From a virus (lineage: Duplodnaviria; Heunggongvirae; Uroviricota; Caudoviricetes): a stretch of 64,000 nt of DNA. Positions within the stretch are counted from its first letter, which is position 1. Every line of letters starts with the position of its first letter. This document shows positions 3 to 56,170 of the stretch, in pieces. The translations under genes and the position numbers were made by a program. The notes beneath the pieces are model-generated. The model was given only the letters and a program-made list of their open reading frames with translations, was not told the DNA's origin and made no database searches. The stretch lies in IMG/VR virus record IMGVR_UViG_3300047550_004303; one strand, written 5' to 3'.

Positions 3-3000
3 ACTGAATTTATTCAAAGTTGGACATCAATTGCATCAGGTGCATCACATTCTGCTGCAATTAGAACAGACGGTGGTTTGTTTACTTGGGGAGCAGGAAC
101 AAGTGGTAGATTAGGTGATAATACTACAATTGATAGATCAAGCCCAGTACAAATAGGAACGAGCAGTTGGACTAGTGTAAGTGCCGGAAATGCACACACA
201 GCAGCAATAAGACAGGATGGATCATTATTTACTTGGGGAAGAGGTCTTGATGGACAATTAGGTGATGACGGTTCCATTAATAGATCAAGTCCCGTGCAAA
301 TTGGAACTAGTAGTTGGACAAGTGTGAGTGCTGGTTTTGCACATACTGCTGCAATCAGAAATGGTAGTTCATTATTTACTTGGGGATGCGGTCTATGTGG
401 TGGATTAGGTGATGGAACTACTATTAATAAGTTTAGTCCAGTACAAATTGGTACAAGCAGTTGGACAAGTGTAAGTGCAGGATTTTATAATACCGCTGCA
501 ATACGTTTAGATGGTGCATTGTTTACATGGGGATATGGAAGAGGAGGAAATTTAGGTTGGCTAACCACTGTTCAAAGTTGGACAACAATTTCATCCGGAG
601 TAGGGAATGTCGCCGCTATTAGATCAGATGGTGGTTTGTTTACTTGGGGAGCAGGTAGTTCGGGTAGATTAGGGACAAATGACATTATTGATAGATCAAG
701 TCCGGTACAAATAGGAACAAGTAGTTGGACTAGTGTAGATGCAGGGGCCACTCACGTTGCTGCAATACGAAGTGACGGAAGATTATTTACTTGGGGAGCA
801 GGTGGTGCAGGTCGTTTGGGAAACAATACTACAATTGATAGATCAAGTCCGGTACAAATAGGAACTAGTAGTTGGACAACAGTAAGTGCAGGATGTTTTC
901 ATACTGCGGCAGTAAGATTAGATGGTTCAATATTCACTTGGGGATGCGGTGCAACAGGTAGATTAGGAGACAGTAATACCGTTAATAGGTCTAGTCCAGT
1001 ACAAATTGGAACAAGTAGTTGGACTACCGTTAGCGCAGGAAATAACTTTACAGCAGCCACTAGAAATGACGGAAGACTATTTACATGGGGAACTGGAGGT
1101 TGCGGACAATTAGGATGGTTAACTGCTGTTCAAAGTTGGAACGCGATAGCATCAGGAAATGGACAAGTATTAGCTATTAGATCAGATGGTCTTTTGTTTA
1201 CGTGGGGATCAGGTGGTGCAGGTAGATTAGGAAGCGGAGACACTTTTGATAGGTCAAGCCCAGTACAAGTAGGTGTAAGCAGCTGGACATCAGTAAGTGC
1301 AGGATTTTCACATAGCACAGCTATAAGAAGTGATGGAAGATTATTTACTTGGGGTTCTAATAGTGTAGGGCAATTAGGAGACAACACAACCGTAAACAGA
1401 TCAAGTCCAGTACAGGTAGGAACAAGCAGTTGGACTAGTATCAGTGCAGGAACCTATAGCACAGCAGCAATAAGACAGGATGGTTCTTTATTCATTTGGG
1501 GATTCGGAACATCAGGTAGATTGGGTGATGGCGGTACACTAAATAGATCCAGTCCAGTACAACTTGGAACAAGTAGCTGGACCACTGTTAGTACAGGAAA
1601 TGGAAATACCGCAGCAATAAGACAGGATGGTGCATTATTTACATGGGGGGATAATGCATCAGGACAATTAGGAGAAGTAACAGCAGTATTAAGCTGGAAT
1701 GCAGTTTCTTTTGGTCGTTCTCATGTTACGGCTATAACAAATACTAACATATTATATGCTTGGGGATTAAATAACTATGGACAATTGGGTGATGGTACTA
1801 CAATAAATAGATCCAGTCCAGTGCAAATTGGAACAAGCAGTTGGACCAGTGTAAGTGCCGGAGTTGCACACACAGCCGCAATTAGAACAGACGGTGCTTT
1901 ATTTACTTGGGGAGCAGGTGGTGCAGGTAGATTAGGTGATAGCACAACTATTAATAGATCAAGCCCAGTACAAATCGGCACAAGTAGTTGGACTGCCGTA
2001 GCTGCAGGTGGTTCTCATACAGTAGCTACCAAATCGGATAGTTTGTTATTTACTTGGGGATTAAATAATTTCGGGCAAATGGGCGACGGTACTACAACAA
2101 GTAAATCAAGCCCAGTGCAAATTGGCACAAGTAGTTGGACTACTATAAGTGCAGGACTTCAAATGACTGCTGCGATAAGAAATGACGACGGTAGATTATT
2201 TACTTGGGGAGCAGGTTCAAATGGTAGATTGGGTGATGGCGGTACACTAAATAGATCCAGTCCAGTGCAAGTTGGAACGAGTAGTTGGACAGCCGTAAGC
2301 GCAGGACAAGCACATGTAGTAGCAATAAGGCAAGGTGGTTCATTATTTACTTGGGGATATGGAACAAGTGGTAGATTAGGTGATAATTCAATTATTGCTA
2401 GGTCAAGCCCAGTACAAGTAGGAACAAATAGCTGGACAGCAGTAAGCGCAGGAGAAGCGCATACTGCTGCAATAACAATTAATAATACTTTATTTACATG
2501 GGGAAGAGGACTTGACGGACAATTAGGAGACGGCACTTCAGTTAACAGATCAAGTCCAGTACTAATCGGTGCTAGTACTTGGACTAAAGTAAGCGCAGGG
2601 GGAAATAATACAGGAGTAATAGGACTATTATCATCTGATTTACAAATTACAGGTGCGGCAAATACTGGTCAATTAGGCAACAACTCAACTACAAGTAGAT
2701 CGTCATTGGTGTTAGTGGGCAGTATTGCTGTAGAACCAAGATCATCACCTGTGCAAGTTGGATCAAGTAGTTGGACAACAGTAAGTGCAGGCGGGGATCT
2801 GTTCACTGCTGCTATCCGTAACGATGGAGGCTTATTCACCTGGGGACATAATCTTTTCGGTCAACTAGGAGATAATTCAACTATAAATCGATCCATTCCA
2901 GTGCAAATTGGCAATTGTAGTTGGACTAGTGTAAGTGCAGGAGTACTTAATTTTACTTCAGCAATTCGTAATGATGGTTTACTATTTACATGGGGCTGTA

Positions 3001-6000
3001 ATGGTTTAGGAGCATTAGGAGACGGTACGACAGTTAGAAGATCAAGTCCAGTACAAATAGGTACCGGAAGTTGGACTAGTATAAGCGCAGGTTCTGCATC
3101 TATGTCGGCTATTGATAACAGCTCTGTTGCATATCTTTGGGGATATGGTACTTCAGGTAGAATAGGTGATAACACTAATATAACTAGATCAAGTCCAGTA
3201 GTATTAGGCAATATCAACCCATTGCTAGTTTCTTCTCCAGTGCAAGTAGGCACTAGTAGTTGGATAGCAATAAGTGCAGGATATAATTTTGCAGCAGCTA
3301 TAAATTCAAACAATTTACTTTTTACTTGGGGTTTAGGAGCTAACGGTAGATTAGGTGATGGAAATACCATAGATAGATCAATCCCCGCCCAAATAGGATC
3401 AAGCAGCTGGACATTTGTAAGCGCAGGTGAAAATTCATCAAATCCTGCTGCAATAAGAAGTGATGGTGCTTTATTTACCTGGGGATTCAATTCATCAGGT
3501 CAATTGGGTGATAATACTACTATTAACAGATCAAGTCCAGTGCAAATTGGAACAAGTAGTTGGACATCAGTAAGTGCAGGACAAGATTTTATGTCAGCAA
3601 TTGATAGTACCGCTGTAGCATATATTTGGGGTGAAGGAAGTTCAGGAAGAATAGGTAATAACACCAATATAAGCAACTCAACACCATTAATTTTAGGTAA
3701 TATAAATCCAGTACAGGTTTTTTCTCCAGTTCAAGTTGGAACCAGCAGTTGGACATCAGTAAGTGCGGGATGTTGTTTTGCAGCAGCAATTAGAACAGAC
3801 AGTGCATTATTTACTTGGGGTTTAGGTAGTTCAGGACGTTTAGGAGATGGCACAACTATTAGTAAATCAAGCCCAGTACAAATTGGAACAAGCAGTTGGA
3901 CATCTGTAAGTGCTGGCTTCACTCATACCTCTGCAATAAGAAGTGATGGTGCTTTATTTACCTGGGGATTAAATTCATCAGGTCAATTGGGTGATAATAC
4001 TACTATTAACAGATCAAGTCCGGTACAGATAGGAACAAGTAGTTGGACTACAATTAGTAGTGGTGGTAATTCAACTTTAGGACTAGAAATTGATAACACA
4101 TTATATGCTTGGGGATTAGGAACTTCAGGACAATTAGGTGATAATACAACTATCGCTAGATCAAGTCCAGTTGTATTAGGAGGTATACTAATAACTTCTT
4201 TTTCTAATCCAGTTCAAATTGGAAATAGCAGTTGGACATCTGTAAGTGCAGGTGCAACGCACACTGCTGCAATAAGACAAGATAATGGTTTATTTGTTTG
4301 GGGTGCAGGCAGTTCGGGTAGATTAGGGACAAACGACACCATTAATAGATCAAGTCCAGTGCAAATTGGAACAAGTAGCTGGACTACCGTAAATGCAGGT
4401 GGTACTCACACAGCAGCAATAAGAATTGATGGTTCATTATTTACCTGGGGATTCAATTCATCAGGACAAATAGGTGACAATACCACTATAACCAGATCAA
4501 GTCCAGTACAAATTGGAACAAGCAGTTGGACTAGTGTAAGTGCAGGTATTACTCACACAGCAGCAATAAAACAAGATAGCTTATTATTTACATGGGGAGC
4601 AAATGCATCAGGACAAATAGGTGACAACACTACAATCAATAGATCAAGTCCAGTACAAGTAGGAGGACAACCAATTGATACTTCATCCCCTAATCAAATA
4701 GGCACAAGTAGTTGGACATCCGTAAGTGCAGGTGCGTCTCATTCTATGGCAATAAGAAGTGATAAATTATTATTTGCATGGGGGAGTAATAATCTTGGTC
4801 AACTTGGGGACGGCACAATATTGTCCAGATCAAGCCCTATACAAATTGGATCAAGTAGTTGGACTAGTATAAGTGCAGGTGCATCACATACTGCGGCAAT
4901 AAGAAGTGACAATGCATTATTTGTATGGGGAAGTAACAGTTCAGGGCAAATAGGTGATGATACTACAATAAACAGATCAAGTCCAGTTCAATTAGGAACA
5001 AGCAGTTGGACTAGTGTCAGTGCCGGTAAAAATGGCCCCTTTACTGCTGCAATCAAAAATAATGGCTCATTATTTACATGGGGATTAAACAGTAGCGGAC
5101 GTTTGGGAGACGGAACTACGGTTAACCGTAGTAGTCCAGTACAAATTGGTTCAAGCAGTTGGACCGCTGTAACTGCAGGTTACATAAATGCACATGCTAT
5201 ACGAAGTGATGGATATTTATATACATGGGGAAGTAATAGATATGGACAATTTGGAAATACTGCACCTCTAACTTGGAAGAATTTATCTGTTGTCGTTAAC
5301 ACAGTATTAGCGATACGTAATGACGATTTATTGTTTAGTTGGGGCCTTAATGATTTTGGACAAGTAGGTGACAACACCAAAATCAATAGGTCGAGTCCAG
5401 TACAAATCGGAACAAGCAGTTGGACTGCTATTAGTCAAGGAACCAATGTTAGTTTAGCTATACGTATCGACGGGCGATTATTTGCATGGGGTAGAGGAAC
5501 TAACGGAGCATTGGGACAAGGTAACCAAATTGATTATTCTAGTCCAGTACAAATAGGAACCAGCAGTTGGATTGCAATTGCAGCAGCAACCGAACTTACA
5601 AGTTTTGCTATTCGCGTTGATGGGAGACTTTTTAGTTGGGGTGATAATAGTGTAGGGCAATTAGGTCAAGGTTCAGGAGTAGCATTTGACACTAGCCCAG
5701 TGAACATAGGAACCAGCAGTTGGACTCAAGTTTCAGCCGGACGCAGACATGCAATTGCTTTGCGAAGTGACGGGGCGTTATTTACCTGGGGATCAAATAC
5801 ATCAGGACAATTAGGTGACGGAACAACAATAAACAAAAACAGTCCAGTGCAAATTGGATCCAGTAGTTGGACCGCAATTAGTGCAGGAGGTTATAACTCC
5901 GGTGCAATTCGCGCTGATGGTGCATTATTTACCTGGGGATCAAATACATCAGGACAAATAGGAGATAATACAAGAACTACAAACTCTAGTCCTGTGCAGA

Positions 6001-6680
6001 TAGGAACAAATAGTTGGACAGCGGTAAACATATCATTTGGAGGTAGTACCTGGGCAATTAATAACACTAATTTGATATATGGATGGGGGAGCGATTATTG
6101 GGGAGATGGAACAACTAATACCCGTTCAAGTCCAGTACAAATAGGTACACAAAGTTGGACTGTAATTCAAAGTAATGGCGGAATCACATCAAATTCACTT
6201 TTATATATGTGGGGGGGAGGAGGGTCAGGACAAATAGGAAATAACTCAACTGTCACACAGACTACTTCAACACTCACTGTTTTAGGCGGAATAAGCCAAT
6301 CATCATCACCAATACTTGTTAATTTTAATAGTTGGCGTCAAGTTAATAGTAATGCTTCACACACCGCTGCAATACGTAGTGACTATACACTTTTTACATG
6401 GGGAGCAGGTACATCAGGTAGATTAGGTGACGGAACAACAATTGACAGATCAAGTCCAGTACAAATTGGATCCAGTAGTTGGACCGCAATTAGTGCAGGC
6501 ACAGCACATACTGCTGCAATTAGAACAGACGGTCTTTTGTTTGCTTGGGGAGCAGGTAGTTCAGGACGTTTAGGTACCCAAAATACCATAGATAGATCAA
6601 GTCCAGTATCAATAGGTAGTAATAGTTGGTCTGCGATAGGTGCAGGTGACACATTTACTTTAGGATTATTAAAGGCGTAA
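3..6680 (+). CDS. Giant RCC1/BLIP-II-repeat beta-propeller protein (5' truncated by window edge), probable virion fibre/decoration protein
   Basis: Frame is open from base 3 (TEFIQSWTSIASG...), upstream of the TTG at 78. About 44 copies of a ~49-aa repeat SWxxVSAGxxHTAAIRxDGxLFTWGxxxxGxLGDxTTINRSSPVQIGTS, matching RCC1-type repeats. Virion role is inferred from context. Confidence 0.9.
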   Translation, partial: TEFIQSWTSIASGASHSAAIRTDGGLFTWGAGTSGRLGDNTTIDRSSPVQIGTSSWTSVSAGNAHTAAIRQDGSLFTWGRGLDGQLGDDGSINRSSPVQIGTSSWTSVSAGFAHTAAIRNGSSLFTWGCGLCGGLGDGTTINKFSPVQIGTSSWTSVSAGFYNTAAIRLDGALFTWGYGRGGNLGWLTTVQSWTTISSGVGNVAAIRSDGGLFTWGAGSSGRLGTNDIIDRSSPVQIGTSSWTSVDAGATHVAAIRSDGRLFTWGAGGAGRLGNNTTIDRSSPVQIGTSSWTTVSAGCFHTAAVRLDGSIFTWGCGATGRLGDSNTVNRSSPVQIGTSSWTTVSAGNNFTAATRNDGRLFTWGTGGCGQLGWLTAVQSWNAIASGNGQVLAIRSDGLLFTWGSGGAGRLGSGDTFDRSSPVQVGVSSWTSVSAGFSHSTAIRSDGRLFTWGSNSVGQLGDNTTVNRSSPVQVGTSSWTSISAGTYSTAAIRQDGSLFIWGFGTSGRLGDGGTLNRSSPVQLGTSSWTTVSTGNGNTAAIRQDGALFTWGDNASGQLGEVTAVLSWNAVSFGRSHVTAITNTNILYAWGLNNYGQLGDGTTINRSSPVQIGTSSWTSVSAGVAHTAAIRTDGALFTWGAGGAGRLGDSTTINRSSPVQIGTSSWTAVAAGGSHTVATKSDSLLFTWGLNNFGQMGDGTTTSKSSPVQIGTSSWTTISAGLQMTAAIRNDDGRLFTWGAGSNGRLGDGGTLNRSSPVQVGTSSWTAVSAGQAHVVAIRQGGSLFTWGYGTSGRLGDNSIIARSSPVQVGTNSWTAVSAGEAHTAAITINNTLFTWGRGLDGQLGDGTSVNRSSPVLIGASTWTKVSAGGNNTGVIGLLSSDLQITGAANTGQLGNNSTTSRSSLVLVGSIAVEPRSSPVQVGSSSWTTVSAGGDLFTAAIRNDGGLFTWGHNLFGQLGDNSTINRSIPVQIGNCSWTSVSAGVLNFTSAIRNDGLLFTWGCNGLGALGDGTTVRRSSPVQIGTGSWTSISAGSASMSAIDNSSVAYLWGYGTSGRIGDNTNITRSSPVVLGNINPLLVSSPVQVGTSSWIAISAGYNFAAAINSNNLLFTWGLGANGRLGDGNTIDRSIPAQIGSSSWTFVSAGENSSNPAAIRSDGALFTWGFNSSGQLGDNTTINRSSPVQIGTSSWTSVSAGQDFMSAIDSTAVAYIWGEGSSGRIGNNTNISNSTPLILGNINPVQVFSPVQVGTSSWTSVSAGCCFAAAIRTDSALFTWGLGSSGRLGDGTTISKSSPVQIGTSSWTSVSAGFTHTSAIRSDGALFTWGLNSSGQLGDNTTINRSSPVQIGTSSWTTISSGGNSTLGLEIDNTLYAWGLGTSGQLGDNTTIARSSPVVLGGILITSFSNPVQIGNSSWTSVSAGATHTAAIRQDNGLFVWGAGSSGRLGTNDTINRSSPVQIGTSSWTTVNAGGTHTAAIRIDGSLFTWGFNSSGQIGDNTTITRSSPVQIGTSSWTSVSAGITHTAAIKQDSLLFTWGANASGQIGDNTTINRSSPVQVGGQPIDTSSPNQIGTSSWTSVSAGASHSMAIRSDKLLFAWGSNNLGQLGDGTILSRSSPIQIGSSSWTSISAGASHTAAIRSDNALFVWGSNSSGQIGDDTTINRSSPVQLGTSSWTSVSAGKNGPFTAAIKNNGSLFTWGLNSSGRLGDGTTVNRSSPVQIGSSSWTAVTAGYINAHAIRSDGYLYTWGSNRYGQFGNTAPLTWKNLSVVVNTVLAIRNDDLLFSWGLNDFGQVGDNTKINRSSPVQIGTSSWTAISQGTNVSLAIRIDGRLFAWGRGTNGALGQGNQIDYSSPVQIGTSSWIAIAAATELTSFAIRVDGRLFSWGDNSVGQLGQGSGVAFDTSPVNIGTSSWTQVSAGRRHAIALRSDGALFTWGSNTSGQLGDGTTINKNSPVQIGSSSWTAISAGGYNSGAIRADGALFTWGSNTSGQIGDNTRTTNSSPVQIGTNSWTAVNISFGGSTWAINNTNLIYGWGSDYWGDGTTNTRSSPVQIGTQSWTVIQSNGGITSNSLLYMWGGGGSGQIGNNSTVTQTTSTLTVLGGISQSSSPILVNFNSWRQVNSNASHTAAIRSDYTLFTWGAGTSGRLGDGTTIDRSSPVQIGSSSWTAISAGTAHTAAIRTDGLLFAWGAGSSGRLGTQNTIDRSSPVSIGSNSWSAIGAGDTFTLGLLKA

Positions 6681-6723
6681 CAAAATTTGAACTTCGTACA
6701 AAACTATAATGACCCAAAAAAAC

Positions 6724-6738
6724 TAAATACAATAAATA
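6724..6738 (+). promoter_or_regulatory. Two tandem T4-like late promoter boxes (TAAATA)
   Basis: TAAATA at 6724-6729 and 6733-6738 in the intergenic gap upstream of the ATG at 6766; AAGG SD at about 6754. Confidence 0.55.
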
Positions 6739-6765
6739 TATAAAAATTATACATAAGGTTAAAAT

Positions 6766-9700
6766 ATGGCCGGATTTAAAGTAAATGGCACTGATTTAGA
6801 TAATTTATTTGCACCTATAGGCACTACCAATAAAATTGCCGACGTAGGCTATAGAATTTCAGGCAATGATATATCTAATTTATACCTACCTGCTTCATGT
6901 GGTCTACCATATGGAACCACAAATTATAAAAAAACAGGGTCTGACATCGGTACATTATTTGCATCATTGACTTCGGTCGATGCATTTTTCCTTTATGCAT
7001 GGGGACAAAATAATTATGGAAAATTAGGAAGCATTCCTACAAGTTGGAATACTATAAGTGCAGGATACTGTCATTCAGCAGCAATACGCAGCGATGGTTC
7101 ACTATTTACTTGGGGAGTAGGTACAAGTGGTGCATTAGGTAACGCCAGTACAGTCAGTGAATCTAGCCCAATTCAAATTGGCGCTAGTAGCTGGACAAGT
7201 GTAAGTGCCGGTTTAAATTGGAATTTAGCCGTTCGTAATGATGGATCATTATTTGTTTGGGGAGCAAATGCATCAGGACAATTAGGTGATGGAACTACTG
7301 TAGATAAATCAAGTCCAATTCAAATAGGTACAAGTAGTTGGACATCTGTAAGTGCAGGAAGAACAGTAGCAGCAGGATTACTTTCTAATAAATTATTTAC
7401 TTGGGGATCTAATGATAGTGGACAATTAGGCTTAGGTGACACTACAAATAGATCAAGTCCAGTGCAAGTCGGCACCAATAATTGGACAAAAGTAAGTGCA
7501 GGAAGAGACCATATACTGGCTATTAGTGATACAAATAAACTTTGGGCTTGGGGGAACGGTGGTTCAGGGCAATTAGGTGATGGTACTGTAATAAATAGGT
7601 CAAGTCCAGTACAAATAGGATCTAATAATTGGGTAGATATAAGCGCAAGCCTTGGTAGTTTTTTTAGCACAGGAATAAGACAGGATAATTTACTATTTAC
7701 ATGGGGGGCAGGCTCATTTGGTCAATTAGGTATTGGATTAAGCAGCGGGGATAGATGTAGCCCTGTGCAAGTTGGTGCAAATACATGGTGTAAGGTTAGT
7801 GCTGGAGTAAATTTTGCAACAGCAATTACAACAGCAAATTTAATATTTGCATGGGGAACAGGAACTAACGGTAGGTTAGGAAATAACTCCACTATTGATA
7901 GATCAAGTCCTGTAGTAATAGGATCCAGTAATTGGACCGTAACAAGTTCAGGTGGATTTCACACGTTAGCCTTACTTAACAATAACACGGTATACACATG
8001 GGGATTAGGATCATCCGGTAGATTAGGTGATTTAAACACTGTTAACAGATCAAGTCCGGTACTAATAGGTTTTACAACTGTTAATAGATCAACCCCTTCG
8101 CAAATAGGAACAAACAGTTGGGTTTCAGTAAGTGCAGGACCAAGTCATGTTGCAGCAATTCGTAATGATAGATTACTATTTACATGGGGAAGAAATCTTG
8201 ACGGACAATTAGGCGATGATACTACAACTAACAGATCAAGCCCAGTACAAATTGGTACAAATAGTTGGGCAAATGTAAGTGTAGGACAAGCGCATACTGT
8301 TGGTATATTATTAGGAGGAAGATTATTTACTTGGGGATTCGGAGCAAATGGTAGATTGGGAGATAATTCTAATGTTAACAGGTCAAGTCCAGTACAGGTT
8401 GGCACAAGCTGTTGGATTAGTGTTAGCGCCGGACAGTATCATACTGCTGCAATAGCAGCCAATAGAAAACTATTTACTTGGGGTTGGGGAGCTAACGGTA
8501 GATTAGGTGATGAAACTACTGTGGACAAATCAAGTCCAGTACAAATAGGAACAAGCAGTTGGATTAGCGTGAGCGGAGGTGGTTCTCATACAGCAGCAAT
8601 TCGTAGTGACAATATTTTATTTACCTGGGGATTAAATACATCAGGACAATTAGGCACATGTACTGATGTTTATAGTTGGACCACAGTAAGTGCAGGTAAT
8701 GTCCATACTGCTGCCATACGAAGTGACGGAGCTTTATTTACTTGGGGAGCAGGTAGTTCAGGTAGATTAGGTGACGGAACAACAACCGACAGATCCAGTC
8801 CAATACAAATAGGCACAAGTAGTTGGACATCAGTAGGTGCTGGTGTATTTCATACTGGTGCTATTAGAGTTGATGGGAGATTATTTACTTGGGGTTTAGG
8901 AACATTAGGTAGATTAGGTGACGGCACAACCAATAGATCAAGTCCAATTCAAATTGGTGCAAGTAGTTGGACTACTATAAGTGCAGGAGCAGCACACACT
9001 ACTGCATTAAGAATTGATGGTGCTTTATTTACTTGGGGATATAATAGATTTGGGCAACTAGGTGACAATGCAACAGCCAACAGGTCAAGTCCAGTACAAA
9101 TAGGTATCGACAGTTGGATTACGGTAAGTGCTGGAGGAACTCATACAGCAGCAATTCGCAGCGACAATATTTTATTTACATGGGGAGTAGGTAGTTCAGG
9201 TAGATTAGGAAATGATTCTACTATTGACAGGTCAAGTCCAGTACAAATAGGTACCGGCAGTTGGATTACAGTAAGTGCTGGAGGAACTCATACAGCAGCA
9301 ATTCGCAACGACAATATTTTATTTACATGGGGAGTAGGTAGTTCAGGTAGATTAGGAAATGATTCTACTATTGACAGGTCAAGTCCAGTACAAATAGGAA
9401 CCAGTAGTTGGACATCAGTGAGTGCAGGTGGCACTCACACCGCTGCAATTAGATCAGACGGCGCATTATTTACTTGGGGTTTGTGGATTTCGGGACAATT
9501 AGGTGACAATGCAACAGCCAACAGGTCAAGTCCAGTACAAATAGGAACAAGTAGTTGGACTACGGTAAGTGCCGGAGGAACTCATACAGCAGCAATTCGT
9601 AGCGATAATATTTTATTTACCTGGGGAGCTAGGGGATATGGTCAATTGGGAATCGGAACTAGTGGTAACAATATATCAAGTCCAGTACAGGTCGGTGAAA

Positions 9701-10092
9701 ACATTTTATCAAGTGTTTCTAGTCCAGCACAGGTAGGTACAAACAGTTGGGTGTCCGAAACCGCAGGAGAGAACCATACTGCCGCTATACGAAGTGATTC
9801 ACTGCTATTTATATGGGGAGAAAACGTTTTCGGTCAAGTAGGAGACAACACTACGTTTAATAGATCAAGTCCAATACAAATCGGAACAAGTAGTTGGACA
9901 AGTGTGAATGCTGGATTTTCTTTTACCGCGGCAATTCGTAGTGACAATGCTTTGTTTACATGGGGACGTAATAATTTCGGACAAATAGGTGACAACACTA
10001 CAATCAATAGGTCAAGTCCAGTACAAATAGGAACAAGTAGTTGGACTATGGTTAGTACAGGCGGAAACACAACTTTTGGAATATTTTCATAA
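6766..10092 (+). CDS. RCC1-repeat beta-propeller protein (21 repeats, 3 propellers) with ~70-aa N-terminal module
   Basis: 1108-aa ORF with the same repeat as the upstream paralog. The N-terminus carries three copies of [F/Y]xxxGxD[L/I]xxL[F/Y]. Confidence 0.9.
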   Translation: MAGFKVNGTDLDNLFAPIGTTNKIADVGYRISGNDISNLYLPASCGLPYGTTNYKKTGSDIGTLFASLTSVDAFFLYAWGQNNYGKLGSIPTSWNTISAGYCHSAAIRSDGSLFTWGVGTSGALGNASTVSESSPIQIGASSWTSVSAGLNWNLAVRNDGSLFVWGANASGQLGDGTTVDKSSPIQIGTSSWTSVSAGRTVAAGLLSNKLFTWGSNDSGQLGLGDTTNRSSPVQVGTNNWTKVSAGRDHILAISDTNKLWAWGNGGSGQLGDGTVINRSSPVQIGSNNWVDISASLGSFFSTGIRQDNLLFTWGAGSFGQLGIGLSSGDRCSPVQVGANTWCKVSAGVNFATAITTANLIFAWGTGTNGRLGNNSTIDRSSPVVIGSSNWTVTSSGGFHTLALLNNNTVYTWGLGSSGRLGDLNTVNRSSPVLIGFTTVNRSTPSQIGTNSWVSVSAGPSHVAAIRNDRLLFTWGRNLDGQLGDDTTTNRSSPVQIGTNSWANVSVGQAHTVGILLGGRLFTWGFGANGRLGDNSNVNRSSPVQVGTSCWISVSAGQYHTAAIAANRKLFTWGWGANGRLGDETTVDKSSPVQIGTSSWISVSGGGSHTAAIRSDNILFTWGLNTSGQLGTCTDVYSWTTVSAGNVHTAAIRSDGALFTWGAGSSGRLGDGTTTDRSSPIQIGTSSWTSVGAGVFHTGAIRVDGRLFTWGLGTLGRLGDGTTNRSSPIQIGASSWTTISAGAAHTTALRIDGALFTWGYNRFGQLGDNATANRSSPVQIGIDSWITVSAGGTHTAAIRSDNILFTWGVGSSGRLGNDSTIDRSSPVQIGTGSWITVSAGGTHTAAIRNDNILFTWGVGSSGRLGNDSTIDRSSPVQIGTSSWTSVSAGGTHTAAIRSDGALFTWGLWISGQLGDNATANRSSPVQIGTSSWTTVSAGGTHTAAIRSDNILFTWGARGYGQLGIGTSGNNISSPVQVGENILSSVSSPAQVGTNSWVSETAGENHTAAIRSDSLLFIWGENVFGQVGDNTTFNRSSPIQIGTSSWTSVNAGFSFTAAIRSDNALFTWGRNNFGQIGDNTTINRSSPVQIGTSSWTMVSTGGNTTFGIFS
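9112..9405 (+). repeat. Near-identical 147-bp tandem duplication (two RCC1 repeats)
   Basis: 9112-9258 and 9259-9405 differ at only a handful of positions (agttggattac[g/a]gtaagtgctggaggaactcatacagcagcaattcgc...). Confidence 0.9.
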
Positions 10093-10103
10093 TTAATATG
10101 AAT

Positions 10104-10111
10104 TATAAATA
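10104..10111 (+). promoter_or_regulatory. T4 consensus late promoter TATAAATA
   Basis: Exact TATAAATA upstream of a GAGGA SD and the ATG at 10135; heads the glycan-modification locus. Confidence 0.7.
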
Positions 10112-10134: not shown

Positions 10135-11187
10135 ATGCATTTAATTGACCAAGAACTTAATTTAATGATTCGTGGTAGATTTGAAGATGGTTGGAAAATT
10201 GCAGAAGAACTTGAACGTATCGATCCAACTGATCGTAGAGCTAAATTTAACCGTGGTTGGTTTCTCATCAATCAAGGTAAATGGCAAGAAGGGTTTCAAT
10301 GCTTAGAATACGGAAGATCACTTAACGTTTATGGTTCTCCAAAACTTCATACCACTAAACCAATTTGGGATGGAACAGATTTAACTGATAAAACTGTTAT
10401 TATCAACTTAGAAGCAGGATACGGCGATAACATCATACAAGCTAGGTTTGCAACAGAAGTCTGGCGGCGTGGGGGAAAATGTATACTATGTTGTGATAAA
10501 ACTGTACATTCAATCTTCATGCGTATTCCAGGTGTAACAGCTTGTATAACATTGCAAGAAGTACAATCAACACATCACGATTTTTGGGTTCCTGGTTTTA
10601 GTTGTAGTTGGATGTTTGGTCATACTGTTGATACTATACCCAACGAACCATATATTTTTGCAAAACCAGAAAGCGTTCAAGTTTGGAAAGAACTAATCAA
10701 AGGTGACAAACCAAAAATAGGTATTCGTTGGAGTGGCAATCCTAAATTTGAACATCAACAATTTAGAATATTTCCACCAGAAATGTTAATCAAAATTCAA
10801 AAAGAATTTCCACATTGTCAATGGTATTCACTACAACGTGATAGCGATCTAAGAGAACTTCCAGAAGGTATCAGTGATTTAAATCATATATTGATAAGTT
10901 GGGAAGACACAGCAGCATGTATTGAGAACCTAGACTTAGTAATATCATCATGCACAAGTATAGCTCATTTGGCTTCTGCAATGGGCAAGCCAACTTGGGT
11001 TATAGTTCCTATTCTTCCATATCATGTTTGGGCATACGGAGATAAACATAGTCCATGGTATACTGAAAATACAGTTGTGTTTAGACAGAAAAAATTTAGC
11101 AAGTGGGAAGAAACATTTACTGAATTAAAGGAAGAACTACACAAACTTTATCCTCAAAAAATTAATCAAGAACCTAAACAAGAGTAA
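10135..11187 (+). CDS. TPR-containing GT9-like (GT-B) glycosyltransferase
   Basis: N-terminal TPR-like helices (AKFNRGWFLINQGKWQEGF); EAGYGDNIIQARF and DLVISSCTSIAHLASAMGKPTW motifs typical of the TPR-GT9 family. Confidence 0.8.
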   Translation: MHLIDQELNLMIRGRFEDGWKIAEELERIDPTDRRAKFNRGWFLINQGKWQEGFQCLEYGRSLNVYGSPKLHTTKPIWDGTDLTDKTVIINLEAGYGDNIIQARFATEVWRRGGKCILCCDKTVHSIFMRIPGVTACITLQEVQSTHHDFWVPGFSCSWMFGHTVDTIPNEPYIFAKPESVQVWKELIKGDKPKIGIRWSGNPKFEHQQFRIFPPEMLIKIQKEFPHCQWYSLQRDSDLRELPEGISDLNHILISWEDTAACIENLDLVISSCTSIAHLASAMGKPTWVIVPILPYHVWAYGDKHSPWYTENTVVFRQKKFSKWEETFTELKEELHKLYPQKINQEPKQE

Positions 11188-35262: not shown

Positions 35263-35270
35263 GTATTTAT
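35263..35270 (-). promoter_or_regulatory. Late promoter ATAAATAC
   Basis: Minus strand reads ATAAATACATT-ATG. Confidence 0.65.
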
Positions 35271-38200
35271 CATTCATTTGAATCGATCCTTAAGAAAATA
35301 GCACTATCTGTTGTACTAATTTGCAACGGATCACCTTCTGTGCTGTTATAAAAATAAGAGTTCCATTCTAAATCGTAATAATTTTCTGGCATTTTATTAG
35401 TATTTAACAAGCCATAAACTTTGGTATATTTAGGTATCAAATTTTGAGTACCGGTTGTGTTTATTCCTCTTGATAGACCTGTTATAGTATTTGCCGCAAC
35501 ATTAATAGTGGTAAATCCTATTTGTTCCCCATTAATAAAGATAGTATCACCTTCTGTAATTGTTATTGTCAATGTTTGTCCATCATTTATTACCAGTGGG
35601 TCAGCTTCAATTATTAACGTTGGAACTAAATCAATAACTTCAATAGTGTAATAAGAAGAACTTATATATGAACTTGTATTTTCGTTATAAACAGTTACAC
35701 TATTTATTATGTTTTTATCAGCAGTTAATCCAATAAAATATTCCCCTGAAACTGCGGAAATATTAGTTTCAACTTGAGTTGTTATAGTTACTAACTTTAA
35801 AACGTCGTTTACATATATAGTTTCATCAGTAAATTTAAAATCTTCAGTTAACCAAGTTACAGTTGAAGGGTTTTGTCTATAAACTAAAGGTTGATTTAAA
35901 GCATTTACATTGATGAAGAATTTTTCTTGATTTGGGGTTGCTGATGGCATCATACTTGTGATGATTACAGTATCGGTGTTAGTTATTGAAGTTAAAATAC
36001 TTAACTCATTTACATTGTTTATTTTTAATAAATTAGTAGAAACTTTATAACCATTCAATGTTACCCATAATCTATCAGTATTAGTTTGCTCCCATTGCGT
36101 GACATTCATGGTTCCGGTTGCATTACTAAGACTTAGTTCGTCTCCGCCTCTTGTTGTTGAAATTGTAAATTGAGTTCCGCTTACTATTTCTCTTACATAA
36201 TATTCCTGTCCATCAGAGATGTTTCCAAATGTTGTTACTGGATTACTAGAAATTATCATTTGAGTAAAATACACCGGAGTATCTACCACTAGTTTACTAG
36301 TATCATTAACAGTTATTATGTTTGTACTTGCAGTAGTAGCTGTTGCGTTTGCCGCTGATGGTAACAAGAAATTATCTCTTAACCATCCAAAGCCACCACT
36401 TATATAAGTTGACACTGAAAGTACTGGATCATTTATTGCATTGATTCCTGAATTGTATGCAGTATTGTACAAATCAAAGATAGAAGATGTTATCTTCTTT
36501 ACATAATACAAGTTATTGTTAAGTTGAACTGATCCAACGACTCCGTCAATTCTAATTCTATCATTTTCCGCAAATGTAGTAGCAGTCGCAAACGTAACTC
36601 TTACCGCAGGTTGTCCTCCCACAACAGCAACAACAGCACTAGGTGTCGCTGTTCCTGGATCAAAAGTACTTCCACCTAAAGATGTAGAAATAGTTATGTC
36701 ATTACCTACAACTGTTAATATGAAATAAACAGTTCCATCAGTCAATACGTTTCCAAATGCTGTTCCCAAAAATTGTATTGTTTGATTTACAGCCATTCCA
36801 GCTGTACTACCAAATGAAATTTTATTTGTTACTGCTGATGACGCGGTTGGACTTTGTTGAGCAGTATATGGCGTAATTGAATTGTTAATAGTTTGAATTT
36901 GGTAAACATAATTACCTGTAATGTTGTACTCTGTATTCAAATATTGACGTTCTGTGTTGTTGTACGAAGTTACTCCAACAATATCCCCATTGTTTAGTGT
37001 CGCTGATACAGTTAATTGATTAGTAATACTATTAATGGTATAGTCTGTGTCTGGTAATCTTAAACCGTTTAATTCAACAATTGCATTGTCTGGATTATCT
37101 TGTCCAACAAAATTAGTTAAACTAAAGGTAGAAACTATACCATCAGCAGTAAATTCTTGATATTCAGGAACTGTATATCCATATTCACTTGCATCACCCG
37201 AGCTACCAAAAATTGTATAACTTATAAAGTCTGTATCTACATCATAAGAATTTGTAAAAACTAGTTTTGCTAAATTGTTTAGGTCTCCTGGAACTATTTG
37301 TTCAATGGTATAATCAACTCCATAAACCAATTGTGATCCGTTATGATAAACTATCGGATCAGTGTAAACTGTTTGTAGTGTAAAATCAATTATACTGTAA
37401 TATAAGTAATCCAAATAAATTTCACTATCACCAGAATCTTCATTAGTAATGATAGGGTTAATGTCAGTGCAGGATTTTACAACCTGATTTCCGTTTCCGA
37501 CTTCATACACATTAACAATTAATCTATCTGCTATTGGTAAATAAGTCAATGGAGAATTTAGAATAATTTTTTTGTTTACCCAATCAACAGTGTAGTTTGA
37601 ATCGAAATACCTTTCTGCTAAATTAGTTGATCCATTTACTAAATAAACACTAATTTGTGCAGGAACCTGCACAACATTATTAAAAGAATATTCAACTTGA
37701 GTTCCTGATTCCGGTGAAAGTTCGACAGATACAACATTGTACCCAACATGTTGATATTCTGTTGCTGACCATACTGTTCCAGGAGTTGTATTTACTTGCA
37801 ACATTAAACTATCAGTAATATTGCCAGGAACTAATTCTTCTGGTCCATAACCATACGCAAAAGTCGCGCCCTGAAAATCATATACGGTAGGAGTGGTACT
37901 AGTGAACGTTCTGTCACTTATTTCACTATCTAATGCAAACTGTTGTGAGGGTTCAAACGCATTATTCAATAAAGTTAAGTATGGGAAAGCTATTCCATTT
38001 ACCAACTGTGTTAAATTCAAACCAGGCATATTTGCAGTTGGTGAGTAATAACCCATTATTCTGTCTAATGCATTTAATCTTACATCATCAGATTGTATAA
38101 GTTGCCATTTTGAAGAAATAAATTCATCATCATTGTTACCTACAATACAAACATAAAGTCTGTTATTAAATTTGACTATACTTTGTTTGAATTCATAAGG

Positions 38201-41200
38201 TGAAGTTATAACAAATACTGATCCTATCTTAGCCATTGATAATGATTGATTTGACGGAGAACCTACGGCAAATGTTGTCCCGCCCGGTACTGTACTTATT
38301 GTTATAGTATTAGTTGCTTTGGTTAAAATGTAATATGTTTCACCAATAGTAATGTTACCGCCAGTTATATCACCGGTAAATACTACCATGTCATTTACTG
38401 AAAAATTAGTTCCTGATGTAAGTGTTATGTTTGGACTTGAAATTGAAGCGACTGTTGTAGAAACTATTCCAGAATACGGTAAGGTCAATCCACTCACCGG
38501 AATCGTAAACATGTTATCTTCATATAACATAAATTCAGTTTGATTTATAGCTTTTAAATAGTAGCTATTTGTTGTATCGTTAGGATTTCCTTGGCATATT
38601 ACCTTTAATATTTCTCCGTCAGTATCTATATCAATAACGGTAAGTGTTAAGTCATTAGTAGGAGTAGTTCCACCAATCAAATTGCCTGTAATAACCAATG
38701 TGTTATTATTTGCATATCCTTCACCTGGATTAGTAATTACAACTCTATAACCACCTGCAATATAGCTAACACTGAATTCTGGTGCTGTTGTAGGTGTTTG
38801 AATTAATTCACTAACTGTTACACTATCATTTCCAGTAGTTGCAGGTGTTCCGCTTTTAGTTGTTGAAACCTGAACGTAGGAAGTTCCAGTTCCTACCATA
38901 GTTCCTGTGCCATTAGCGACAACCAAAGTTGATCCCCCTTCAGTGGTTGATATAGTAAATTGTGTCCCATTAACAATTGTTTTTACAAAATAAATCTCAT
39001 TTAAATCTACTCCACCAATTCCAGAAAATCCTGAAAATTTTATTGGCATATTTACATACATTAAATCAGTGGTATCGCATACTAATATATTAGTAACTGC
39101 TATTGTTTGAGTAACTGTGATTTCAATGGTGTCTATTGTAACAACATAATATTGTGTTGCAGCGGTCAAACTTCCTATGTTAACTGAAAATTCAACTGGC
39201 ATATTTACATAAAAATTATCAGTAGCATCGTCAAAATATTGATTGGTAGGATTCAAAACAACGATGCCACCAGTAAGTGTGGTGACATTTTTTACTAATC
39301 TAATACTTGCTTCAATTAAAGTTTCACTCGTTGGATTTATTCCAACATATTGACTAGAAGTTGTATAGAATGTAACTCTTTGACCGTTCAGTTGTCCGGA
39401 ACTCACTGGGGAATCCATGTTCAATAACATACTACCTGAAGCAGAGGTAAGCTCAACAGTGTTAATTTGGCTGGTCATTTTTCCAGTTGTGTTTGTTGCA
39501 CTTGCAACAGTAGTTAAATTTACAACTGATCCATTAACTGAAGTTGCAAGTTTAATCTGAGTTGTGTTTACTATCTCTATTACATAGTATGTTGTTCCTG
39601 CAACGATTCCACCAAAATTAGTTACTAATGAACCTGCAATTTGCAATTCTGTAAATATAATAGGTTCATTAATTTCTAATGTGTCAGTAGTTTCTTCAAG
39701 TGTCACTGTGTCACTTGCACCATCAGTTGAAACTAAGGTAAATATATTTGGGTCCTTTGTTTCTGACATTGTAAAGTTTTCACCATCAATTACAGTAGTA
39801 ACATAATAGGTTTGATTTGATTTGATTCCACCAAACTCAGTTCCAGTAAAGAATATTGGTAAGTTTGTGTAGAAACCATTTGTACCAGCAGTACCAACTA
39901 AAGTATAAGGAACTGTTATGGTATTAGTTAAAGCAGTAGTTGCATTAATATTTCTGATATTTGGAAAATTAACTGAGACAACCGCAGTATTTATGATCTG
40001 CCCGGTACTTACATACAAAGGCGAAGAAGCAGTTGCAGTAGTAAGTGCTAATGGACTACCTAAAGGATCACCGCCTGCAATTGTAGAAACAGTAAATTCA
40101 TCTAATCCTAAAATACTATGTACATAGTAGGTAGTAGTTGAACTTAACCCACCTATCATTGCACCGCTGAATTGTATAGGCATTCCAATGAAAAAGCCAA
40201 CTGTTGAACCAGAACCATTCTCAAAAGTAGAACTTACATCTAATATAATACTGTCGGTAGATGATGAGGTACTCAATGCACTACGTAAAAATGAACTATA
40301 CGTAATTTGTTCATTATTTTCAACACTATTAATAGAAAAAACTGAACCATTGAAACTTGCAAGTATATTAGAAATCGGAGGATCAACACTTTCTAATTGA
40401 ATCGTTGAACTTGATAGGAATGTTTCCGCAAAGGGTGCGCTGTAGAAACCACCCGGTTCCCAATTAGTAACTTGACTTGTATAACTTGTTCTGTCAAACT
40501 TGATAGTAGTTTTGTTTTCTCTTGTTGGTCTAGAGGTAACAACTGAAATAGCCTTCGCACCCATACATAACTGATATTCACCTGTACCTAAATTCAACAA
40601 ATCTATTCTGTTGAAATTGTTATAGCAATCATGTATGTTGTTGTATAAACCTATTTTCAGATTTGGGGTAATTTGTAAAACATTAACGTAATACCATTGA
40701 CCATCTATCAAATTGCCAATATTTGTTCCAGAAACAACTTTATATTGTACCAAATCACCTGTCTGTAATGTATTAATTTCCAGATCAATTGAGCTTGTGA
40801 AGGCAATATCATCATTAGCAAATGACACATTTGTAGTTGAAAACCCTAAAGTAACTGAAGGTTCAATTATTATTTCTGGAATAGTCATATATCCTTTTCC
40901 AGGATCTATTACTTCTACACCTATTACCCTACCATTATTCATTATTGCTTGCAATAACGCTGGTTTTATTGGGGGAGGAAATACAGTAGTGTCTATCAAT
41001 GCATAAACATCAGGAACTTCAACATAATTTCTACCTGATTCCATTACTAATACTTCAGGTAAGTTAATATAAATTTGATCCCCTGGAATGTGAGTTTCAA
41101 TAGCTGTACCATCTACTCCTCTCACTAGTTCAGTTAGTAGTCCCAATTCTCTGTCAATATTATTGTACTGAATAATTTCGTTACCAATAACTACAGTTCC

Positions 41201-44200
41201 CGTTACAGGAAAACTGTTAATGTTTTTAACCGACATTGAAGTTGTATTCAGTGCAAGATATGAACTAAGATATGTTATTGGAACATTTTCATATCTAGAC
41301 AGACTTAATCCTCTGTTACTAAACCATTGATTATAGTTTTGATCATTCCAAATATCACTGGTAGTAGAATATGTATAAACATTATCAGGATTTGAGTAAA
41401 CTAATTGTGGTGAAACAAAGTTATCAACAGAGGTATTATATTGTGCAGGTAAATCAAAATCAGTTATGTTACCTTCATATACATCTGTACCTGTGTATCT
41501 AAATGTGAATTCTTTAATAACTACGTGATAAGGTTTAGCTTCTCTGATATATCCTTCCAAAAATTGATCATTGTCATTTTGTAAATTTTGTATAGGTCTA
41601 AGTTCTCTGATTGTATGGAAAACATCAACAAGAGAAGTTTTATTTAACCAAGGCAAGTAATTTTGATTTTCTAATGTTTCACTTTGAATATACTCAAAAA
41701 GTAAAATCAAACTCTTGTTTCTAAAGATAGAAAATTCATCAGTGAAAATTTGTTCGTTGATCGCACGAATGATATTTCTTGTTTCTTGTGATGGGAAAGA
41801 ATCAAATGGTGTTGCATCAAAGAAATTATCACCGAATCCAATCTTTCCTGCACTGTAATCATACAGTAAAGAACTAAATTGTATAGTTCCATTCTGCAAT
41901 CCAATTCTTATCCAACCTACTTCTGTGTAGATATATGTCTCTACACCTACTGTATTGTTTTGTGTGACATTTACGATTGTGCCAAAAGGAACAGTTAATG
42001 TTGACAAATCAGCATAGTAAGTTACCTGATATGCAGCTTTAGTATTATTACTGTATCCAGTTGCCCACCAATTTGCATATTCCCAGTAATCTTGTGTACG
42101 ATAGAATGGTAAAGGACCACCTTGCCATTCTGGATTATCTACTGTTGAAGGATTGATCGCACCCTCAGTGAACAATAAACTAAACTGCTTAAGTTCAGTT
42201 ATTGGGAACTGTAATAAAACTGTGTTGGTATACTGAATATAATTTTTTAATGCCAATAACCTATTGTAGAAAAAGCTTTGTCTGGGTCTTACAAGTATAC
42301 CAGTTTGAACTAGTTTAGGTAAATTAATATCAGGTACATTTTCTCCTTCTTCATCCAAACCTGCAAAACTATCTAACAATCTGTCATACAATGAGATAGG
42401 AACACCATCTACTGTGTCTGGTACGCCTGGTAAAAAGTCATCAGCATAATTTGATCTTATCAAATCATATTGATTGTGAGTCAAATCATCACTATTTCCA
42501 GTTGCAAATCCTATATTCAATAAAGTATCAGATGCATTGATATATGGTCCTGAATTGTAAAGTGCAAACACATCAGGTAACAATGGAGCAAAATAGCTTA
42601 TACCAGAAAACTTAGGGGAAGCTATATAACGTTCAATAATACTATCTGCTAATGTTTTACCTTGATTTATGAAGATAATGTTAGAATTTCTTACCCAATA
42701 GAAATATACTGGGGTAAGTGTTCCTTGATCATTTATTATGAACTGAGTTGAATAACTATCAAAATCATAAACTGTTCCAGGACCTGTGTAGTTTATAGGC
42801 AACACATCACTTGATATCCATGAATAAACTGCTACATCACTACCTGGGAATAAAGTGGCCCAATATTCACTATTGTATGCAATATCATTGTTTTGATGAT
42901 AGTTTACGAATCTTACATTTGAAGTGTTGAACCATATTTGTCCGACTTGAGTTGCACCCCAAACTAACTTACCATTAACATTAGATCCAGAGTTGTATCC
43001 AGCTGGATCAGCGTTACTAATAAAGTCGATATTTTGTCTAGCCGCACCAAGAATTTTTCCTTGTAATGGATCAATATAATCCATATTAACTAATGTGTTA
43101 TTGGTTTCAGCACTAAACAATTGGATGTTTGCAATCTTTTCAATATCAACAACTTTGCTTGACTGTCTGTAAACTTGCCAATCTGATAAACGTGTGCTAT
43201 TAGTATAGACGGTTACGATACCATCATCTTGATCTGGTGTTCCGATCAATACGTTAAAGTTGTTGAAGTCAAGTGCAGTTCCATATTTAGGCTGACTTCC
43301 ATATGTTTGATCATTTGAATTAACACTTTGTGCATAAATGTATTTTCCAGGATCATTTATGTTTTCATTGTAATTACTTACATAATCAAACATGTAGACT
43401 GCACCTGCATTTGGATATTGATCTATAAATTGTGTTGCATTGTTATCAAAAATAGTGTCATTATCCTGATTTTCATCGTCAGTAAAATCAAAAGTAGTGC
43501 TTGAGAATCTTGTTCCAACTATTGCACTTGCAACAAATGAATTGAACTCATTAGTCTTTACAGTAAATCCAAATTGAGTTCTGTTGCTAGTATGTGGGCA
43601 AGTAATAGTTTGTGTTTTTATATATGTAACGAATCCCAATTCAGTTAAAGTATCAGGATCGGTTGATGTTAAAATAAGTTTTTGATTTACTGGTGCAATT
43701 GAATTGTTTACCAATGAAATAGTTAATATGCCGTTTGATGCAGAAGCGGTAACATTTGTGATTTTGCTTCCAACAATAACGTTTGCAGCGGCAGCAGCAT
43801 TTCCAGCTGGCAAATTAACCAAATAACCATTTATTAACAATGGTCTTGTAGTTGTTAAATTGACCGAAGTTTGACCTGTTACTGTTCCATATTTAGAACC
43901 TGCATTAGTAAATCTGTGAACAGCACCTTCTTGATCTTGTGTGATTAATTGATATGGTGCTCCTATAATGATTTCACTTGCATATAGATTTGTATCCATG
44001 CTAGTAGCGAATTGCACACCTATTTGCGGAGTTGATTCATTACTCAATCTTTGCATGTAGTTGAATTCTTTTGCATTGACTGTAATAATATCACCTGCAT
44101 TTAAAGAACCAACATATGCTAATTGACTTCCCACTACCGCATATTGATTATCTTCTACTAATGTTCCATTTAAAGCAACAAACAATGTGTCATTTTGTGC

Positions 44201-55720: not shown

Positions 55721-56170
55721 TTACTGTAACGTTAATTGGTAAGTATTAATGTTAGCAAAAAGTTGAAGAACTTGTGCTTGATTAAAAGGGGTAACTGCTA
55801 ATTCAACTTCTATCAAAACTCCATTATCTTGGGGATAACATTCTACATAGTTTAGATTTATTCTAGGATCAAGAGAAGCAACTCTTCTTACTTCACTTTT
55901 TATCCTATCTTGAGTAGTACTGTCATTGGGTTCAAATACAAAATTCCATAAAATGGTACCATACTGAGGCTGACCTACTTTTTGACCTTGCTTGATATTC
56001 AATGCGTTTACTAAATCTTGAACAACTATCGCAGAATCAACAAGTTTATATTTTTTACCCGCATTTATAGGTTTAGTTACAGTACCAAATCCACCATTAT
56101 TACCTATATTAGCATTAGTGGTTCTTGGTTTATTTGCGTTGATTGAGCTATACCCTAAATAGTTTGCCAT
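55721..56170 (-). CDS. Baseplate wedge subunit (T4 gp25-like)
   Basis: VQDLVNALNIKQGQKVGQPQYGTILWNFVFEP...DPRINL matches the gp25/GPW family pattern. Confidence 0.85.
   Translation of the reverse strand: MANYLGYSSINANKPRTTNANIGNNGGFGTVTKPINAGKKYKLVDSAIVVQDLVNALNIKQGQKVGQPQYGTILWNFVFEPNDSTTQDRIKSEVRRVASLDPRINLNYVECYPQDNGVLIEVELAVTPFNQAQVLQLFANINTYQLTLQ

Follow-up and report, generated by a model that had tools for sequence, protein, structure and literature searches.

One gene in a 64,000-nucleotide (nt) stretch of DNA from an uncultured tailed virus (Caudoviricetes; IMG/VR record IMGVR_UViG_3300047550_004303; the whole stretch is hereafter called the window) encodes a protein of 1108 amino acids (aa), P0001, that is built of RCC1 repeats. 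In our judgement this is probably a late-gene protein of a T4-like giant freshwater phage, in which three seven-bladed RCC1 propellers make up a branched nest: a core ring that carries two complete satellite rings, each spliced into a loop of a core blade. The three-ring nested architecture, taken by itself, is very probable; it is predicted rather than solved. An initial annotation of the window had already proposed a core with two satellites, and that proposal is now supported by the phase arithmetic of the repeats, clean in silico excision of the inserts, the domain boundaries in an AlphaFold2 model, the predicted assembly of the core pieces (including strand pairing across an insert), and a comparative series from related phages.

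Membership of the RCC1-like domain (RLD) repeat group is clear, as the protein scores above the curated thresholds of both relevant Pfam families: PF00415 (RCC1; 625 bits vs. a cut-off of 21.7, E 1e-192, 19 stretches) and PF25390 (RCC1-like domain; 679 bits vs. a cut-off of 150, E 2e-204). The start codon of the open reading frame (ORF) is sound, because a ribosome site (AAGGT) lies 7 nt 5' of the ATG and the N-terminus is kept in related contigs (L002, L003, L004, L012, L013).

The repeats were parsed with a cyclic-profile Viterbi procedure that uses a 49-residue repeat model starting at the SW motif and permits penalised phase jumps. The parser finds exactly four phase discontinuities, two opens and two closes. 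At the opens (after aa 88 and aa 635), a repeat is cut just past its GxLG motif (model position 33 or 38) and the array restarts at position 1. At the closes (after aa 435 and aa 979), a complete repeat is followed by a second SSPxQxG strand, with re-entry at position 36 or 41. The two bracket pairs enclose 6.96 and 7.00 repeats, and what lies outside them (0.3 repeats at aa 73-88, then 4.1 and 2.5) comes to 6.9, with the phase of the host ring continuous across both inserts. Every one of the three rings thus sums to a whole number of blades, about seven. The same junctions can be recognized in the DNA, where the 147-nt period is interrupted only there (spacings of 186, 264, and 339 nt). These observations establish the bracketed grammar of the repeat array. 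They also agree with the initial annotation in its particulars: the coordinates that it gave for the motifs SIPT, FTTVNR, TCTDVY, and ENILSSV proved exact when mapped onto the ORF, its count of seven repeats inside each pair was recovered by the parser, and its description of a velcro-closed seven-blade core, with inserts at the first half-repeat and at repeat 4, fits the continuous 6.9-repeat remainder.

Deleting aa 89-435 and 637-984 from the sequence in silico leaves a single uninterrupted array of 6.9 repeats with canonical repeat lengths, and this array begins at strand C of a blade and finishes at strand B of that same blade. The result depends on where the cuts are made: shifting the cut points by at least 5 residues C-terminally or at least 10 N-terminally brings the junctions back (a shift of 5 residues N-terminally does not). 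The simplest competing arrangement is three consecutive propellers, like beads on a string, with the junctions as irregular linkers or decayed blades. It can draw on tandem members of the family that are free of junctions (P0029 with 28 repeats, and the 14-repeat L031 protein described below) and on the fact that AlphaFold2 did not explicitly close a discontinuous core. However, the junctions fall at 0.3, 7.3, 11.4, and 18.4 repeats along the array, which are not multiples of seven, and a consecutive three-ring split leaves junctions within rings. A division near aa 790 would furthermore yield one three-stranded blade, one surplus strand, and orphan part-blades at both termini.

Table. Parts of the 1108-aa gene and its neighbours in the window (pLDDT, predicted local distance difference test score from AlphaFold2)
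Feature	Position (nt)	Strand	Basis or remark
RCC1-repeat protein P0001, 1108 aa, 21 repeats as 3 predicted propellers, stop included	6766-10092	+	ORF, Pfam
N-terminal head piece, aa 1-72, presumed attachment leader	6766-6981	+	three motifs; pLDDT <50
Core first half-repeat, aa 73-88: strand C and GKLG of closing "velcro" blade	6982-7029	+	model positions ~20-33
Opening linker 1, SIPT, aa 89-92	7030-7041	+	motif location, parse
Inserted propeller 1, aa 93-435, 7.0 repeats	7042-8070	+	parse; pLDDT ~90; UVR8 superposition
Return to core, aa 436-450: FTTVNR (aa 436-441, 8071-8088) and outer strand D (STPSQIG) of velcro blade	8071-8115	+	parse, excision
Core repeats, aa 451-630: three full repeats, then strands A-C and GQLG of next blade	8116-8655	+	parse; pLDDT 70-88
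Opening linker 2, TCTDVY, aa 631-636	8656-8673	+	motif location, parse
Inserted propeller 2, aa 637-977, 7.0 repeats, most consensus-like	8674-9696	+	parse; pLDDT 55-85
Closing linker 2, ENILSSV, aa 978-984	9697-9717	+	motif location, parse
Core C-terminal part, aa 985-1108: strand D (SSPAQVG), two full repeats, terminal velcro strands A-B	9718-10089	+	parse, excision
Conserved 350-aa gene directly downstream	10135-11187		anchor of synteny
Giant RCC1 gene upstream of the 1108-aa gene	3-6680
5677-aa ORF adjoining baseplate wedge genes	35270-52303	-
Large wedge subunit	52305-55673	other strand	phrog_10646 (E 6e-250)
gp25	55721-56170	other strand

In the RCC1 structure of Renault (1998), the strands A-D of each blade are reportedly ordered from inside to outside. 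On the usual reading of the motifs, W..VS.G corresponds to strand A, HTAAIR to B, LFTWG to C, and SSPVQI to D, and it is this map that places the insertion site in the loop between strands C and D. The chain would start with the 72-residue head piece and then lay down strand C of the blade that closes the core. In the loop after GxLG it would leave the core for the first time, build one complete propeller (aa 93-435), and rejoin the core, where strand D and three and a half more blades follow. The second exit would be from the same loop of the fourth repeat, and after another complete propeller (aa 637-977) the chain would supply strand D of the interrupted blade, two further blades, and finally strands A-B, closing the ring against the N-terminal strand. 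Each inserted array, running from model positions 1 to 47, would correspond to a ring cut at the two-residue turn from strand D to strand A. Because the ends of a ring cut in this way adjoin, it can hang on a loop by two short linkers. Each satellite would thus be tied to the core at one point by two linkers, with both termini and the head piece remaining on the core. Fixing of this kind should be stiffer than attachment through a single linker.

AlphaFold2 was applied to the full-length protein with a 20-sequence alignment (mean pLDDT 73, predicted template modelling score 0.43). Confidence is highest at residues 93-435 (pLDDT about 90), and the first insert (aa 89-438) is modelled as a closed propeller, superimposing on UVR8 (4dnv_A) with Z 55.5, a root-mean-square deviation of 1.4 Å over 347 aligned residues, and 28% identity, and on RCC1 (1a12) with Z 40.9 (VIA-align). 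The seven-bladed RLD fold was found by structural superposition for this insert alone, and all 50 VIA-align matches listed for the full model fall on it. Among the longer segments, pLDDT drops below 50 only in the head piece (1-92) and at the junctions (436-452, 625-644, and 964-982); the domain breaks in the model therefore track the brackets, not a consecutive split, and they do not lie near aa 790. A search of the ESM Atlas by shape was uninformative on topology, returning only single or loosely matching RCC1 models (template modelling scores by query of 0.31-0.45).

Assembly of the core was examined with ESMFold2, in which aa 59-92, 436-636, and 978-1108 were folded as three separate chains, alongside three controls. 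The complex of core pieces scored 0.92, compared with 0.47 for the best of the three controls; the mark in this test is attained by 51 of 78 solved complexes and by 2 of 108 mismatched pairs. Contact agreement between runs was at least 98%, and the partner pLDDT was at least 92. The contacts of lowest error pair residues 618-621 with 987-990 (i.e., strand C before the second insert with the strand after it), so that in the predicted complex a blade is completed by a strand that follows an entire inserted ring. Residues 440-444 lie within the predicted core interface, and residues 73-83 and 86-87, which are part of the segment (1-92) that AlphaFold2 left unmodelled, are at a predicted interface with the partner chain that contains 1094-1108. 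The three core pieces are accordingly predicted, in this model, to form one ring. Predicted pairing that bridges the second insert is also at odds with consecutive beads, which we regard as highly improbable. Plain tandem order was rejected on junction phase, excision, the AlphaFold2 breaks, and the predicted pairing.

The bracket grammar extends well beyond this one protein. Our family survey covered the 120 best database relatives (approximately 7000 are present in the database), whose lengths cluster near 1100, 1450, and 1800 aa. Many of them parse as balanced brackets, e.g., P0106 as 0.3(3.9(7.0)3.1)6.5 and P0037 as 0.6(6.9)1.9(7.1)4.7, where numbers count repeats and parentheses mark opens and closes; P0006 and P0008 have four nested opens each. 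Among the innermost bracket pairs in these relatives, 29 of 51 enclose 6.9-7.2 repeats, and in at least three of five apparent "9-repeat" exceptions the parser had missed a close after repeat 7. Of the 238 opens in 145 parsed proteins, 169 occur at model positions 33-39, always in the loop that separates GxLG from the SSP strand. The commonest site for a next insert is the fourth blade of an inserted ring (38 cases), followed by blades 3, 5, and 2. Other relatives are tandem and free of junctions (P0029, noted above, and also P0058 and P0068).

A second set of relatives was obtained by synteny. The 350-aa protein encoded directly downstream, used as an anchor, is 74% identical in L001, a 167-kilobase (kb) phage contig, and it retrieved 34 viral contigs at 61%-81% identity. 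We parsed 33 loci (L001 plus 32 of the retrieved contigs), which encode 25 distinct RCC1 proteins. In nearly all of these loci the RCC1 gene ends 20-57 nt upstream of the 350-aa gene. The protein lengths are 711, about 1080, 1425, about 1780, about 1820, 2118, and 2455 aa, and thus change in steps of ~350 aa; together with the lengths of the database relatives, they agree with the 345-350-aa increments anticipated in the initial annotation. It had further expected multiples of seven between paired linkers, and of the 42 closed bracket levels in the syntenic proteins, 34 sum to 6.8-7.1 repeats and four to about 14. The rule of seven is therefore established as general across database relatives and syntenic orthologues, and because of this generality chance can be excluded as its source, as had been suspected at the outset.

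The range of patterns at this one locus is wide. The smallest nested form (711 aa, the L022 type) reads 0.4(7.0)6.5, whereas a 698-aa protein has 14.1 repeats in tandem without a junction. Proteins of 1069 and 1093 aa read (7.0)1.9(6.1)4.6 and 0.4(3.7(7.1)3.1)6.5, respectively, with the last close of the latter read by analogy with P0106. Longer forms are 9.2(3.8(7.0)3.1)3.2)1.6 (1425 aa), 0.4(3.7(3.8(7.0)3.2)10.4)6.6 (about 1780 aa), (2.8(3.7(7.0)3.2)4.2)3.0(7.0)3.5 (1819 aa), (1.7(7.1)5.2)1.9(3.8(7.0)3.2)4.7 (1821 aa), and 0.4(3.8(7.0)0.9(3.7(3.7(7.0)3.1)3.1)2.3)6.6 (2118 aa), and the 2455-aa protein has five nested opens. Levels of about 14 repeats occur in L009, L010, L019, and L013; these may be either two tandem rings in one level or places where the parser missed an open/close pair. 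At the same syntenic position, L031 (7798-9894) encodes 14 continuous repeats without a junction. As such junction-free forms exist, one of them at the syntenic locus, tandem and nested construction coexist in the family. The suggestion that arm length is tuned by nesting depth consequently needs widening: depth does vary, but so does branching, and there are tandem forms (L031, P0029) in addition. In L003, two RCC1 genes are consecutive, as in the window (1993-6441, 1483 aa; 6491-9697, 1069 aa), and the long head piece is present. The second of them likewise encodes a core plus two inserts, but its second insert is placed in repeat 2, where P0001 has it in repeat 4.

The consecutive gene in the window is the giant that precedes the 1108-aa gene. 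Within the window it parses as 3.8(3.7(3.8(7.0)3.2)3.1)3.1)3.1)3.9(7.0)2.6, with one spurious extra close at 1239; its first arm is five rings deep, with two of the opens preceding position 1 of the window. Over the part covered, the parse bears out the earlier description, in which the outer layout matches that of P0001 and the first arm is more deeply nested. The two genes are paralogues: modules of P0001 and P0002 are 47%-68% identical in all pairs, with no orthology by position. The 1108-aa protein had been offered as an independent second example of nesting; the nesting is indeed repeated, but a paralogue of the giant is not a fully independent case, and independent support comes instead from other phages.

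Several observations weigh against the nested architecture and need to be set beside the evidence for it. AlphaFold2 left the closing blade unmodelled: the N-terminal half-blade and the strand at 443-449 are unplaced (pLDDT <50 at 1-92 and 436-452). At the second junction it models as a strand just one of the two candidate D strands, and modelling aa 436-1108 separately, from nine sequences aligned in the junction register, gave an unusable result (mean pLDDT 47). The structure prediction recommended in the initial annotation thus supplied a closed ring for the first insert and breaks at the brackets, but not AlphaFold2 closure of the core. The ESMFold2 pass may reflect the model's memory of solved RCC1 rings, and a three-chain job is unlike the pairs of single chains on which the tool was calibrated. 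Finally, an open-close pair in P0112 encloses nine clean repeats (aa 41-494), which may be either a real exception to the rule of seven or a case of a cryptic junction at a degenerate seventh repeat.

The core complex was predicted from separate chains, and is equally compatible with assembly within one chain and between chains. This leads to a different possibility, namely a domain-swapped dimer or trimer in which the core pieces of one chain complement those of another, and phage fibres are usually oligomers. We consider it quite improbable here, given that levels sum to seven inside a single chain even when they lie four or five levels deep, that the linkers are only 4-7 residues long, and that excising a ring in this way necessarily leaves its two ends side by side, favouring closure within the chain. 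The solved analogues Trm734 and Utp21 also close within one chain.

These analogues show that nested topology has a solved precedent at one or two levels among WD40 proteins. In Trm734, a yeast WD40 triple propeller, the complete seven-bladed ring BPB interrupts BPA between strands c7 and d7, and the N-terminal d7 strand of BPC encloses both of them (PMC6847430). The likeness to the phage protein, whose fold is predicted, includes both the insertion into a c-to-d loop and the logic of strand closure, two levels deep. However, Trm734 is a WD40 protein and a eukaryotic tRNA-methylation cofactor; its insertions are at the closing blade only, and it is without branching, deeper recursion, or copy-number variation. 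In the WD40 double propellers Aip1 and Utp21, two loops join the rings and the first strand closes the last blade of ring 2 (PMC3897721). Ring 1 is therefore topologically inside ring 2, as in the 0.4(7.0)6.5 orthologues and the first bracket pair here, although the cut is between blades (D to A) rather than within the C-D loop, and there is no mid-ring insertion. The RCC1-type ring of human UBR5 is likewise discontinuous in sequence, being interrupted after blade 1 and blade 4 (bioRxiv 10.1101/2022.11.03.515015), but by a UBA domain and other accessory domains and not by whole propellers; its structure (8d4x_A) aligns to our model over chain residues 36-873 (VIA-align). UVR8 (4dnv), the HERC2 RLDs (7q40, 3kci), and RCC1 (1a12) share the fold of the module, but are single continuous rings with other roles (UV-B sensing, ubiquitin ligase, and Ran exchange factor, respectively). 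Guanine-nucleotide exchange, or another activity of the eukaryotic members, would not be expected of a phage structural protein.

Phage RCC1 proteins (PHROG 7220, 4219, and 16766; phAPEC6) belong to the same sequence family and are likewise from large phages, and the searchable literature describes no nested architecture for them. Nor did our searches of it bring up RCC1-in-RCC1 rings, recursive branched mid-ring insertion, or variation in ring number at one locus. The topology in itself has been seen before; the novelty lies in recursion, branching, the use of RCC1 rings, and variation in copy number.

The usual view is that repeat proteins lengthen by adding units at their ends. Here, by contrast, a complete closed domain would have been inserted again and again into domains of the same fold, each time in the same loop. 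To our knowledge, recursive same-fold insertion as a regular, evolvable construction principle is undescribed for any protein family. The broader proposal, to which we give about even weight, is that the proteins follow a recursive "tree grammar" in which rings are spliced into one loop, from two to at least seven rings, and in which gain, loss, and re-grafting tune a host-binding and possibly glycosylated appendage. If so, the products would be rigid, doubly tethered assemblies of rings, either branched or chained. Natural variants at a single phage locus, with two to seven rings and differing branching, could serve studies of protein evolution and design as a series that bears on the tolerance of same-fold insertion and its origin by recombination, and might reveal whether two-point tethering makes stiffer multi-domain arms than single linkers do. 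For phage biology, the proteins point to a class of probable host-recognition appendages that is very common among T4-like phages of fresh water yet uncharacterised, and that is linked with a conserved group of genes for sugar, sulfate, and methyl transferases.

From its gene context, we infer that the 1108-aa protein serves as a host-surface-binding appendage of the virion. An exact TATAAATA (the T4 late-promoter consensus) is present at 10104-10111, 24 nt before the 350-aa gene, and the gene block downstream of the 1108-aa gene includes a sulfotransferase, a methyltransferase, a glycosyltransferase, and a 2-oxoglutarate-dependent oxygenase. The 350-aa protein itself has only a sub-threshold match to GT9 (heptosyltransferase; E 0.048, Pfam), and a sequence search of the PDB found no relative. 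The other strand of the window carries genes for the gp25 wedge protein, the large wedge subunit, a hub-like protein, and virion structural proteins, along with the 5677-aa ORF. These baseplate genes are ~45 kb from the 1108-aa gene on the opposite strand, and their region had no match to cultured-phage records (blastn). In L001, genes for an Mtd_N protein, a collagen-repeat protein, and a tail assembly chaperone are directly upstream of the orthologue, with neck and terminase genes downstream. In such a host-binding appendage, reach and valency would depend on how many propellers there are and how they branch, and the transferases encoded downstream (sugar, sulfate, and methyl) might act on the protein.

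The architecture could be as described and the role be another one, in the cell or capsid, such as DNA organisation or service as a scaffold or substrate for transferases. We know of no phage RCC1 protein with a tested function. For phAPEC6, which carries 11 RCC1-repeat copies, a DNA-ordering role was suggested by the authors (PMC7247149). PHROGs places the 1108-aa protein among phage RCC1 proteins, in families that are filed under nucleotide metabolism by name only. We nevertheless think a role other than host binding unlikely, as the gene is among late and structural genes, its L001 orthologue follows the tail chaperone, collagen-repeat, and Mtd_N genes, and a module number that varies rapidly at one locus is probably typical of host-range genes. 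In addition, the structural matches include the seven-bladed propeller of phiKZ gp131 (4gbf), which we take to be a baseplate protein.

The head piece contains three G-x-D-[LI]-x-x-L-[FY] motifs (at aa 8, 33, and 58; spacing of 25 residues) and is weakly similar to phrog_11610, of unknown function; a search of the window found no paralogue of it elsewhere. Among the syntenic RCC1 proteins there are two unrelated leaders, either of which can come before any nesting pattern. One is short (MLLIEQLLAK, ~20 residues; L001, L009, L010, L017, L019, L022, L024) and the other is long, with ~75 residues and the same three motifs (L002, L003, L004, L012, L013). This use of leaders would fit an attachment-tag role for the head piece.

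Repeats did not sort into clean clusters by nesting level, a check that the initial annotation had proposed. Within the 1108-aa protein, the second insert is the only one with a similarity cluster of its own (mean pairwise repeat identity of 69%); repeats of the first insert are 47.5% identical, which is below the value between the two inserts (55%). The second insert contains identical 90-nt stretches at 9162-9251 and 9309-9398, and its repeats 4 and 5 are 96% identical at the protein level. Such near-identity points to recent gene conversion, or to a duplication with compensating loss in the seven-blade ring.

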